From assembly GCA_964016885.1 (NCBI GenBank), contig OZ024747.1, positions 75,330,001-75,394,000 of the forward strand: a stretch of DNA of 64,000 nucleotides, in the 5' to 3' direction. Every line of letters starts with the position of its first letter. Within the stretch, counting starts at the first letter, position 1. The translations under genes were made by a program, and so were the position numbers. The notes below the pieces were generated by a model. It saw nothing but the letters and a program-made list of their open reading frames with translations. It was not told the DNA's origin and did no database searches. Below are positions 9,779 through 24,620 of this stretch, one piece after another. The DNA comes from Eledone cirrhosa. Lineage: Eukaryota.

Positions 9779-9811
9779 TTCCCGTGAATAATAAACCCGT
9801 TATATTTGGTC
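9779..9811 (+). CDS. Lar: Candidate 33-nt alternative mini-exon of Lar (VPVNNKPVIFG)
   Basis: tgtttcag|TTCCCGTGAATAATAAACCCGTTATATTTGGTC|gtaagt; consensus donor; phase 1-1 matches the host intron; open frame. Confidence 0.7.
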
Positions 9812-9908
9812 GTAAGTAGTTCTGAAAAGTATGGCATTTATAATACTTATTATTATTATCATTATTAATAATATATTACCATCATATAACCTCCATGTCT
9901 TTATACAG

Positions 9909-9920
9909 TGCTCCTATATG
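9909..9920 (+). CDS. Lar: Weak candidate 12-nt microexon (xLLY)
   Basis: ctttatacag|TGCTCCTATATG|gtgcat; frame-preserving phase 1-1, but the donor is weak. Confidence 0.25.
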
Positions 9921-10094
9921 GTGCATGTTGCTGCATATTTTTTAAAATATTTTTAGTAGCCTGAAGTCCTGTAGATTGTGACTTTCAAATATCTTCCGAC
10001 AGTTTTGAACTGGCCTTTTGTTTTTTTGCATCAGTTATTACTTGTATCAATTTTGTCTAGCGTACGTACATGTAACAAAAAAAAAAAAAAAATT

Positions 10095-10227
10095 TTGCGC
10101 TGCCGCTACTACTGCGAAGATGCCAGCATGCTTGCCCTTTGCTTTGATCTGCTGCCTGCTGCTGCTGCTGCTGCTGCTGCCGACGCGTTGCACTGCGCGA
10201 TCGTTACAAATCAGTTTCTTTCTGCAG
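10095..10227 (+). promoter_or_regulatory. GC/CpG-rich, YGCY- and (CUG)n-rich intronic element upstream of the 42-nt candidate exon
   Basis: Abrupt GC-rich island in an AT-rich intron with a (CTG)n run at about 10149-10180; complementary to 24506-24559. Confidence 0.5.
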
Positions 10228-10269
10228 CGATGGATGGACTGAATTTTACCATACATCCTGATATTGCAC
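10228..10269 (+). CDS. Lar: Candidate 42-nt alternative mini-exon of Lar ([14 protein letters not shown])
   Basis: tttctttctgcag|CGATGGATGGACTGAATTTTACCATACATCCTGATATTGCAC|gtaatc; phase 1-1, open frame, protein-like composition, contains an N-F-T sequon. Confidence 0.6.
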
Positions 10270-19898: not shown

Positions 19899-20102
19899 CC
19901 CTTTAGCATTTAAACCGGCCATATCTGGCCAGAATTCTCTCACCTCTTTCTGTTCAAACCAGTTGTAATGTTAAGGGTTGTGATGTTAAGATATTGTTCT
20001 CAAAATAAATAATATAAAAATCTCATAGATTTGATATTATGAGAGATAAAGCCTTTACCAAGAAAATAATAGTATATATTGAGTAATGCAAATGTTAAAG
20101 GG
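19899..20102. mobile_element. piggyBac-type MITE, same family as 18040-18239
   Basis: TTAA|CCCTTTAGCATTTAAACCGGCC ... AAATGTTAAAGGG|TTAA. Confidence 0.8.
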
Positions 20103-23100
20103 TTAACCTTGTGATAGACTGGCAGGGAAAGTCTGTTACTGTTTTTGTTAAATGCCATTGAAACTGGAATAAGCTCCTGCCTGAAAAGCTTCCAGGCTTT
20201 GGACAAACTTTAACTTTCTAAGATGAAAGTTTCATTTGGGGGATATTTATGTGATATTTTTAGCACATAAATGTAAACCTGTTGGCTCATGAAGAACATA
20301 GTTTTACTGGAAGCTGTGTCCTAGTATAGCCTTGATTGAGAAAAAATATATTCAAAAGTATTTTTGTAATAACTATTTAGTCGGTTTTTTTCTTTTGAAA
20401 CATTATATATCTAAGACTATATTATCTAATGTGTCCATTTTTGGAGGTAAAGAGTGGATTGGCAGAAGAATTAGAATGTTGTACAAATACCTTAAAGTAT
20501 TTAGTTTCGGCCTGTTAAATTCTGGGTTCAAAGCATGCAGATATTCATTTTGCCTTTTATCCTTCTTGAGTCGGTGATATGAAATATTGTTGTCAATTTA
20601 ATAGCTTGAAATTGATTTCATCTAGTAATGAGAAGTTGAGTCTTGAATGAACAGTTTTTCTTATTGTGGATTTAATGCTAATCCTTACATGACCCTACTT
20701 TTAATGAAATACTTGTATTATGATTAATTATTGAAGAATTTGGGAAAGATTTACTAAAATTATAATTTCATAAAGGTGTTATTTGTAACATAAAAAACTA
20801 TTCTTGTATAAAACTATGTTTAAAAGTTTTAACTTAAGTAGGAACTCTTTAAAATGGATGGTTTAGTTTCATAGAGGTTGAAGAAGTTTTCAGCGACTTG
20901 ATGTCAAAGGGGTTGATTAATATCAATAATACAAATCCATATGTTCAAGACATGGTCACCTGACCTGAAGTGTCTCATAATGTGACAACCTGTTTAACCC
21001 ATGCAAGCATGGAAAATGGATGTTATTAGCTTTGGAAGATGTTAAAACTAAGATATCATCAAAAACCATAGAGACAGATTTGTAGGGCATTACTGGAGAG
21101 CTAAAGATGAAATTGTTAGTGAAGTTCTTTTGTGGGCTGAGCTTACAGTAGGAAGAGTTAACAGAAGATATATATCAGATTTGTGATGATATAAGCTGTA
21201 ATACCTCTGACCTGCTAAATATGATGAACAATACAATTGGATGGTGACATAAAGTTAAAGGACAAGTCACTGCCACAACCTCATTGGTTTATCAACATTC
21301 TGTATACTAAATAGGAATGATGCCAGTGTTTGAACCACTGCAGATGACTCCTTGAAAGCACCCACGCCCGCCTGGCCCAGCACAACACTATACTTTGTAG
21401 TTAACTGTTTGTTGTCATATTTCTTTGGAAGACATTATTTCAATTAATTAATGAATAATTTTGAGGGGTTTATTAGGATTATTAATTATTTAGATATTAT
21501 CTGCTAGGAGTTGCGACCTGTAGATAGTATCAGTAATGGAAAGACAAATAGAAACATTGTTTCCTTGGTCCTATTTGATAAATTCCAGCCCATTTGGTAC
21601 ATGAATGAGGTCTGGGATGCTGTTGATCGATCAAATAGCTTGATTGAAGATTTTAACTTAACATCATCATTTTACAACTGCTTTTCCTTGCTTGCAAGGG
21701 TGAGATGGGTCCTATTCAGCACAGTCACAGTCCTATTCTTCACTTGTCATGGTCCTTTGTCATCTCCTCTGTGAGCTTCAGCTCTTATATAAAATCATGT
21801 TAGAAGATTTTAATTTCATAGAACTAGAGCTGGTTTTAGCTCGGTTGGTATAAAAAAAAGGTTAAAACAATGACACCCTTATCTGTATTGTTAACATTGT
21901 ATTATACACTCAAGTATAGATCATGAATAGTTTGTCAGCTGGTCGGTGAAATGGTCTCTCTCTCTATCTATCTTAGCTCTTTTGGTTTAGTTTTATTATT
22001 TTCATAAATTGGAACAATGTGGTGTTCTTTGTTAATTTTGTTGTTGTTTTTTTGTTTGTATATTTTATTTTATTTTTTTGTTTGTATATTTTTCTTGTTG
22101 TTTTTTTGTTTGTATATTTTTGTTGTACTTTTGTTGTTTTTTAACTAGCCATTGTATATTCAATACAGAAGCATGCATTATATATATGTACTCTTGCGTT
22201 TATTGCGCTGTTCAAAGTTTCATCTCAGTTGAATTTAGCAATTTACTTTTAACTGAAACCTTGCCCCCAGCTCCTCTCAACTTCCTTCCCTGCTCTATAT
22301 TTCACCAGCGTCCATTGTTTTTTCTGCAGCAGTAACTTAAAACTATTCAGTCAAAACAAACCAGTTTAGCTTAAAATAAATTTTCTATCATCCTGAGTCA
22401 AAACAGCTAAATAAACAGCAACCTTGTATAAAATATATTTATTTGTATGTGTGTATATGTATGTATGTATGTATGTATGTATGTATGTATGTATGGGTGT
22501 TTGTGTGTGTTTCAAAGTGTGCAAAGCTATCGTATCGTCTTCATCAAATTCTAACACTTCTATTATTTTTATATATATATATATATGTATATATATATAT
22601 ATATATCTGCGCGCGTGTGTATGTATGCCTGTATATATATATATATATACATGTAAATTAAGTGTGTGGTGTAAACAATTTAGCTTGAGTGTAGAGGATT
22701 CTTGCATTAAATCTTAATGGTAGGTGGAAGTCCCCCTCCTTCCTTTAAATTGTGTATTTTGGACATACTATACTACTACTGAGTATGTGTGACTCTACTC
22801 CATATGCTCATGGTATTATATTAGCTCTAGCAAATAGTCAGAAATAACTATATATATATGTATATGCATGTATGTATGTATATATATGTATGTATGTATA
22901 TATGTATATATCTATCTATGTATGTATATATATATGTATGTATATATATGTATATATGTGTATGTATGTATGTTTATATATATATATATATATATTTATA
23001 ATCTCGGGAATTTTACCCGCCTTAGATATATATATATATATATATATATATATATATATATATATATATATATATATACCTGTATGTGTGTGTGTGTATA

Positions 23101-23446
23101 ACTACATCTTTGAGGTCGGATTGTTATTTATTTCTGTATTTCTTTGGTTCTTCATATTCTAAAGAAATAATTAAGTTAAAAGCTAAATTAGAATTTCATA
23201 ATAATTATGATAGTAATAATAACAACAACAATTATAATAAGTACAATTATATATTAGTTAGTAACAACTTTCTTGCTGTTATTAATTGCAATATTTTCAA
23301 AACTATTCACACCTAATCAATAAATTTTCACTTAGATAAAAGTTAGTGTTTTGTTAATTAAATTTGTATTGTGTGAGTATAAGTGTTTATATATATATAT
23401 ATATATATATATATATATATATATATATATAGATATATATATATAT

Positions 23447-23507
23447 ATAGGAACGAGTAGGACCCCGACGGCTTGAGCTCAGTCATCGGGGTCCTACTCG
23501 TTTCTAT
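23447..23507. other. Near-perfect 27-bp-stem hairpin between (TA)n tracts
   Basis: ATAGGAACGAGTAGGACCCCGACGGCT-TGAGCTC-AGTCATCGGGGTCCTACTCGTTTCTAT; two G.U pairs and one A-C mismatch. Confidence 0.85.
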
Positions 23508-24474
23508 TACCCACTCTACTACCCTAAGTATTGAGTACTTTGGTGCGTTATGGTCCACCTGGTTCCTTACCACATTTCCTCCGTTATATATATATATATA
23601 TATATATATATATATATATATATATATAATAGAGACATATGAAACCATGTATAATATGTTTATGCATAATAAACATATATATAAGTTTTGCTATGGGTAA
23701 CAGATGCTGTGACATGATCACAGCTTAAAATACCTATAGTGAGAATTAAGTATGTTTATTTTGCACAAATATATTGTATATACTTTCATATAAGAGTTTG
23801 CATATGTGAATATATAGATATATATGCAAATAAATGTGGGTTTTTTTTTTATTCTGGTAATCTTAGAATGAAAGAATATTCCCTAAAAATTTTTAAATTC
23901 TTCACTTAAAATAGCAATTCCTTAAAAATTAAGATTAATTTTAAAATGGTTGTGTGCCTGTGTATGTGTATACCTATACATGTATAAATAAATGCGTGCA
24001 CACACGTATGTATGTTGATATGTCGCCATACATTTAGAAATGGGATGAATATATTCACATGAAATTAATGCACACATGTATGTATATGCATTTATATATG
24101 CGTGTGTGTGTGTGCATATTGTGTGACTATATACATTCTCAATAAAATAAATAATACAAATTTTAATATACATTTATAACTAAGTTTCCAGCTAGGCCAA
24201 CACTTCCCTATATATATAAATATATATATAAATATATATATATATATATATATAAATATATATATATATATATATATAAATATATATATATATATATATA
24301 AATATATATATATATATATATATATATATATATACTACATATCTAATTTAATGCAAGTTCCTTACTGAATCTACAAAATTGAACGCTAAGTATTTAACTT
24401 CAATAAATTATTATTGGTTTGGAAAATAGGATTCTTCTGTCTCATTTAAATTCTGCTGTTTGCTATGTTCATAG

Positions 24475-24620
24475 CTGTACTATTTGAGTGTACTTCGTGC
24501 CCCGCTTGCTGCGTTGTTGCGCGGCTATGGGTTGCAGCTGGTATCTTCCTAGCTAGCGCTCTGCTCTGCCAAACACGGAAGACCACCGCAGCGGTCTTCT
24601 TGCTGTTGCTGCTGCTACTA
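24475..24620 (+). promoter_or_regulatory. GC-rich YGCY-rich intronic island with alternative pairing elements; contains a weak 66-nt exon candidate
   Basis: GCTGGTATCTTC (24537-24548) is complementary to 10116-10127; local hairpin GAAGACC/GGTCTTC (24578-24599); catag|66 nt|gtatct is open in phase 1-1. Confidence 0.45.

Follow-up and report, generated by a model that had tools for sequence, protein, structure and literature searches.

A two-exon splicing cassette lies in the intron that separates the second and third fibronectin type III (FN) repeats, FN2 and FN3, of the LAR-type receptor phosphatase gene of the octopod Eledone cirrhosa. The window analysed here is a stretch of 64,000 nt, read on the forward strand (contig OZ024747.1 of assembly GCA_964016885.1, here G000:C7:75330001-75394000), and the whole LAR gene spans about G000:C7 75.02-75.41 Mb. 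We are almost certain that the cassette, made up of exon A (33 nt) and exon C (6 nt), is real. The best explanation overall, to which we give a probability of about 0.7, is that these two optional, frame-keeping exons, used in four combinations in related octopods, serve as a graded spacer where the receptor ectodomain has a flexible hinge. An initial annotation of the window, made from its letters, had proposed a combinatorial FN2-FN3 cassette of three to five small exons; the combinatorial part stands, with two supported exons and four states in Octopus isoforms, and the larger number of exons does not.

The isoforms that carry this conclusion were found via the FN3 exon. They comprise the 15 members listed of the 27 in an Octopus protein cluster, together with two single-member clusters, giving 17 octopod isoforms, all from automated annotation of relatives and without tissue labels. 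RefSeq isoforms of this kind rest on RNA alignments. Among the 15 O. sinensis and O. bimaculoides isoforms seen, exon A is present in 12 and absent from 3, and exon C is present in 7, in one of them alone. All four states occur among the eight O. sinensis isoforms (A and C together in five, A only, C only and neither in one each), and three occur among the seven of O. bimaculoides (both exons in one, A only in five, neither in one); the single proteins of O. vulgaris and Argonauta have neither exon. Annotated transcripts both with and without the exon are thus found in relatives for A as well as for C. The Octopus inserts read VPVNKPVIFD for the first exon and ES for the second: Octopus exon A has 30 nt and 10 residues, one codon fewer than in the window, and ends in D where the window has G, while exon C gives D/H in the window and E/Q in Octopus. 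The residues at the junctions also change between states in the way the exon ends of the window lead one to expect, with V becoming L after A alone, and with exon C opening on an acidic residue when it stands alone and on Q or H when it follows A. The flanks of exon C are single-copy.

Sequencing runs gave a second line of evidence. The runs used were assembled contigs, none of them recorded as RNA; 4 of 24 were placed on the FN3 exon, and four were compared over 9690-10400, the stretch 10066-10190 being skipped as repeat. X23, a DNA-sized run from another organism, follows the window closely around exon A (X24 covers 9915-10061 only). Its exon A carries a silent change at 9783 and a 3-nt loss at 9787 that reproduces the Octopus exon length, and both splice sites are intact. 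In a run with the same word share as X23, the FN3 coding exon differs at 19 of 287 positions; since X23 has 8 substitutions over the 376 nt of the island (Fisher p 0.005, with two different organisms compared), constraint on the island looks stronger than on coding sequence.

On the transcript side, X19 (100% match, 88 million letters) includes a contig of 6648 nt in which FN3 is spliced to the following exon. The long spliced FN3 contigs of three runs had their 5' loose ends dropped as repeat, so that the upstream partner is unreadable, and the fit to the window starts at 32195, which is compatible with direct joining or with exon C and not with the ends of A or B (B being a 42-nt candidate treated below). 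Such contigs, with no exon A beside FN3, would suit a scenario in which the exons are real but near-neutral and merely tolerated as splicing noise. We consider this very unlikely, given that exon A is in 12 of the 15 Octopus isoforms, that conservation appears higher in the intronic flanks than in a coding exon, and that parallel cassettes occur in many molluscs. Separately, a contig of run X1 coincides exactly with the FN3 exon (ending at 32481), a weak hint of branching and of alternative joining downstream too, and shorter isoforms without about one FN repeat occur among the listed proteins.

What could such an insert do? In human RPTPsigma, according to the part of the source available to us, FN3 folds back on FN2 without an FN2-FN3 interface and the linker is a likely flexion point, and the vertebrate microexon meB lengthens the hinge between the second and third immunoglobulin (Ig) domains and changes partner binding (PMC4239663). 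An AlphaFold model of the O. sinensis form with both exons predicts the two domains confidently (mean predicted local distance difference test score, pLDDT, of 89) with no fixed angle between them (predicted template modelling score, pTM, of 0.48); insert residues 102-109 fall below a pLDDT of 50, form no strand and appear unstructured. We propose that 0, 2, 11 or 13 added residues would uncouple FN3 from FN2 by degrees, and that this uncoupling would alter the reach and fold-back of the ligand-binding head, Ig1 to FN2, relative to the stalk, much as meB does at Ig2-Ig3 in vertebrates. E. cirrhosa itself would be expected to use all four states.

We lean slightly towards spacing, rather than an epitope, as the main action. 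The other possibility is that the insert is a sequence-specific binding or masking motif, a ligand code like that of meA, whose P-(V)-I-F-D end contacts a partner or a neighbouring domain. The IFD end is indeed kept in Octopus, Haliotis and Biomphalaria despite exon lengths of 5 to 20 residues; the insert between Ig2 and Ig3 of the nemertean Lineus starts with KPVIF, a five-residue string also present in octopus exon A; and vertebrate NGL-3 binds FN1-2 (PMC4239663, same part). Yet exon A of the window species ends in G and not in the D of Octopus, the AlphaFold model gives the insert no ordered structure, exon C supplies only two residues, and no clear motif is common to the chiton, oyster and nemertean inserts, so that we regard a binding motif as rather unlikely.

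Inserts at this site also reach beyond octopods. The same junction varies in abalone: in Haliotis rufescens, one of eight isoforms has no insert, one has APIFD, two have AGLP and four have both, and H. asinina shows three states among six isoforms (none in two, VGPT in one, both in three). Biomphalaria glabrata has a 20-residue insert ending in PIFD in 10 of 12 isoforms, Pomacea, Babylonia and Gigantopelta have inserts of 3-4 residues that are in or out, and the chiton Liolophura has two different inserts or none. Among bivalves, INFE is present in 7 of 15 Ostrea isoforms and 33 residues are inserted in the one Crassostrea gigas protein seen (members of two Crassostrea clusters lie outside the count). 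Lineus has a 13-residue insert in 8 of 8. The first exons of Octopus and of gastropods share their last three residues, IFD, where 0.004 such matches are expected among 20 cross-class pairs; the exon ending in IFD comes first in a two-exon cassette in both groups, and the abalone cassette has the same two-by-two design. Exon A would accordingly be homologous to the gastropod PIFD exon. It is likely, from these comparisons of sequence, that the cassette site is older than the cephalopods, and a common origin before the cephalopod-gastropod split would be the simplest reading. The proposal that the cassette evolved independently as a lineage-specific feature is not supported at the level of cephalopods, because optional inserts at this junction occur in gastropods, a chiton and an oyster too, and IFD is shared with gastropods; the cassette may still be independent of the vertebrate LAR code.

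A number of observations pull against this account. The isoform evidence comes from automated annotation of relatives, with 12 of the 27 Octopus-cluster members outside the listing. Nothing of X19, a transcript-like run, falls on A or B (nor does anything from X19 or X1 fall within 9690-10400), and the upstream partner of its long contig is unreadable. Thin alignment over an insert is another source of low pLDDT, and a conserved motif suits an epitope better than a pure spacer. The proposed homology would rest on a motif of 3-4 residues, seen for gastropods at the protein level only, and insert length and sequence vary widely between lineages. No FN2-FN3 insert was seen in Physella (9 proteins with the junction), Littorina (7), Patella (4) or Saccostrea (6), nor in the annelid models or four Logan cephalopod proteins; none was seen in Bradybaena, Lottia, Lymnaea or C. 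virginica either.

Because the inserts differ so widely and several lineages show none, small exons could have been gained repeatedly and independently at a permissive linker, a hotspot at which the cephalopod cassette would be an invention of its own. Between classes, inserts of 2 to 33 residues show little resemblance, several sets from gastropods, bivalves and annelids are without one, and convergent neural exons in the same gene, for example in spg and syd, are described as common across bilaterians in the available part of 10.64898/2026.09.05.749416. Repeated gain is nevertheless improbable in our judgement. Abalone share the order, the two-by-two design and the IFD end, absence from annotations is weak evidence where exons are this small, and a second LAR cassette, between Ig1 and Ig2, is plainly common to octopus and gastropods, showing that small exons persist across the cephalopod-gastropod split.

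Returning to the cassette as a regulated spacer, inclusion would be set by cell type, and a neural bias is probable. The AG-free zone before exon A measures 408 nt, the longest in the intron (1 of 1414 gaps), much of it TA repeat; that before exon C measures 108 nt (33 of 1414), with a branch-point-like ACTAAT at 14255, 41 nt before the exon. A UGC lies at -27 relative to exon A and none is near the acceptor of exon C. A TGCATG downstream of exon A, which we take to be an RBFOX-type enhancer motif, is possibly a working enhancer; since the intron holds 16 sense and 13 antisense copies, the motif is weak evidence alone. Microexons are held to a limit of 27 nt, which exon A exceeds; only C is under 28 nt. 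Compared with neural microexons that depend on eMIC/Srrm234, as set out in the available part of PMC8797185, the window resembles the known architecture in its short frame-keeping exons (A and C are both phase 1-1), in the long AG-free zones before both exons and in the branch-point-like motif before C. It differs in its weak or missing UGC next to the acceptor and in that its flanking introns are long, those of the fly being short. A and C would therefore match the eMIC architecture in part.

Small units with splice-like ends are abundant in this intron. It contains 1183 stop-free AG-3n-GT units of 3-90 nt, which we ranked with a splice-site matrix built from 25 of the gene's own junctions (a 26th, mis-called, was dropped from training). 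The 6-, 42-, 33-, 66- and 12-nt units rank 2, 10, 11, 23 and 159, and the corresponding numbers of antisense units that reach their scores are 3, 10, 11, 23 and 123. Because the antisense strand yields as many units, the sequence pattern alone is at chance level and proves nothing; we rejected splice-site scoring as proof of exons, and outside evidence therefore decides which units are real. The best-scoring unit of all, at 18104-18133 and new to this analysis, was discarded, as it sits inside a repeat. The surrounding stretch, window 18020-18220, is a high-copy interspersed repeat (2277 first-look candidates) and the source of the intron's top pseudo-exon. Docking of the Dscam kind was not seen: the 25 longest of 3831 inverted repeats were microsatellite pairs only.

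By that standard the remaining units fare differently. Unit B, the 42-nt candidate, is single-copy in the genome with a splice score similar to that of exon A, and the intron's densest patch of YGCY and CpG, partly a CTG repeat, lies upstream of it. An AG only 11 nt upstream counts against it. Unit B is in none of the 17 octopod isoforms, no peptide like it (allowing up to 6 changes in 13) occurs among 332 fetched proteins, and neither a search of shorter proteins (5 matches) nor one of 50% representatives (best 150) brought a new insert or a peptide of this kind; no run covers the unit, given the repeat skipped at 10066-10190. From its sequence we consider unit B a serious candidate that nonetheless falls somewhat short of even odds. 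The 12-nt and 66-nt units, also put forward as exons in the initial annotation, are unsupported, with ranks of 159 and 23 of 1183 and no octopod isoform (0 of 17 for each), and we think it highly improbable that either is real. The 12-nt unit is unchanged in X23, as is its whole neighbourhood, which lies inside the conserved island. The patch that contains the 66-nt unit, window 24475-24620, is dense in YGCY, with 9 copies in 150 nt, contains a short stretch resembling a hairpin near 24580-24600, and is possibly a regulatory element rather than an exon.

Features of the FN2-FN3 region, in window coordinates
Feature	Coordinates	Strand	Description	Evidence
FN2 exon	566..767	+	constitutive, second part of FN2, phase-1 donor	spliced match to Octopus sinensis isoform P0029
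FN2-FN3 intron	768..32196	+	31,429 nt, phase 1	spliced alignment of Octopus sinensis isoform
Conserved intronic island	9690..10065	+	surrounds exon A	run X23 differs by 8 substitutions over 376 nt, and by indels
Exon A	9779..9811	+	33 nt, optional, +11 residues, supported	octopod isoforms, relative's DNA
12-nt candidate	9909..9920	+	unsupported as exon	donor -4.2, rank 159/1183
TGCATG element	9922..9927	+	111 nt below exon A, overlaps supposed 12-nt donor	motif
Unit B	10228..10269	+	42 nt, candidate third exon, predicted +14 residues including N-F-T sequon	rank 10/1183
Exon C	14296..14301	+	6-nt microexon, optional, +2 residues, supported	octopod isoforms, rank 2/1183
66-nt candidate	24475..24540	+	unsupported	rank 23/1183, single-copy GC-rich patch
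FN3 exon	32197..32481	+	constitutive, joined to next FN exon in transcript-like contigs	domain match, contigs

Octopus isoform P0029 maps exon by exon onto G000:C7 75.02-75.41 Mb at 75-99% identity, and one gene encodes the type IIa (LAR) architecture of three Ig domains, an FN-III array, a transmembrane segment and tandem D1/D2 phosphatase domains; its closest solved relatives are PTPRF, PTPRS and PTPRD. The exon at 32197 aligns to domain 3 of human LAR FN1-4 and is the FN3 exon, and an FN1 exon sits upstream in the genome, so that the earlier FN2/FN3 numbering was right. The two flanking exons had likewise been placed correctly, and the coordinates, lengths, AG/GT ends, phase 1, multiples of 3 and stop-free reading of all five units were verified, as was the translation of the three-exon (33+42+6) form. 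The intron had been called by far the largest, which is true within the window; gene-wide, an intron of about 176 kb between Ig1 and Ig2 is larger.

Elsewhere in the gene, further optional segments were seen. The FN1 exon, at about G000:C7:75260860-75261165 (L008:3860-4165), is whole and in open frame; none of the full-length octopod isoforms seen includes it, and gastropod and chiton isoforms either include or omit it. The Ig1-Ig2 intron holds a 30-nt optional exon with AG/GT ends in this genome (G000:C7:75092881-75092910, L015), which Octopus isoforms either include or skip. It makes up a second LAR cassette of molluscs, at none of the vertebrate meA-meD sites, and its clear counterpart (N-x-W...Y) is likewise optional in Haliotis, Pomacea, Babylonia, Littorina and Patella. 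At the Ig3-FN junction, P0022 and relatives carry 5-residue inserts, in 7 of 7 O. sinensis and 1 of 6 O. bimaculoides isoforms, and inserts of at least 6 residues occur in oysters and Biomphalaria; a pattern search of the genomic stretches fetched did not find the octopus exon for this insert. Within the window, tandem-repeat-like stretches lie at 5900-8000 (skewed composition) and 62104-62640 (a repeated unit read as an open reading frame).

The best-known splice code of this family is that of vertebrates, in which meA lies in Ig2, meB between Ig2 and Ig3, meC in FN5 and meD near the membrane (available part of PMC8711739). The octopod cassette shares with these microexons of PTPRF, PTPRD and PTPRS the receptor family and the use of short frame-keeping optional ectodomain exons (PMC8711739, PMC4239663, PMC10883964). 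It resembles meA of Ptprd (meA3, meA6, meA9) in having two tandem exons that give in/out combinations, and meB in being an inter-domain linker insert at a flexion point. It differs in that it has no sequence likeness to meA-meD and in that its FN2-FN3 position matches none of them, as far as the available parts of these sources describe them; the earlier statement that the cassette is distinct by position is borne out. At the meA and meB sites, the 13 Octopus isoforms that include the Ig region have no insert. Other lineages do have inserts there: Lineus (P0297 cluster) at a meA-like site and at the meB-like Ig2-Ig3 site, and Haliotis rufescens (P0064 cluster) at the latter. Eight uncharacterised mouse Ptprd exons are reported, placed in a figure, in the available part of PMC10883964, and these may include a vertebrate exon at the FN2-FN3 site.

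In the literature covered, to which subscription papers do not belong, we met with no report of a LAR that carries a splice insert between FN2 and FN3. RefSeq entries for the LAR proteins of O. sinensis and O. bimaculoides (for example XP_036361657.1, XP_036361659.1, XP_036361661.1, XP_036361662.1) and of Haliotis rufescens, which are automated annotation and carry no description of it, already contain the cassette, with all four states of exons A and C represented in Octopus, and the window differs from them by the additional codon and G end of exon A and by D/H in exon C. The cassette is smaller, wider and probably older than had been proposed, and already implicit in automated annotation.

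Among splice codes that govern the choice of synapse, the microexon control of LAR receptors described in vertebrates is a leading example. As a tentative and rather speculative extension, molluscs, and perhaps all lophotrochozoans, might have a LAR splice code of their own, parallel to meA/meB, made up of the Ig1-Ig2 exon, FN1 in or out and the FN2-FN3 cassette, the last at least as old as the cephalopod-gastropod split. A 42-nt exon that adds a glycosylation site would raise the number of states in this octopod to eight, and the code would be set per neuron type and would choose synaptic partners. Separate old splice sites in the single molluscan orthologue would mean that tunable hinges were given to this receptor twice, at different joints. 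The FN2-FN3 linker, a flexion point in the human structure with no described splice insert, would then be named as a site under selection.

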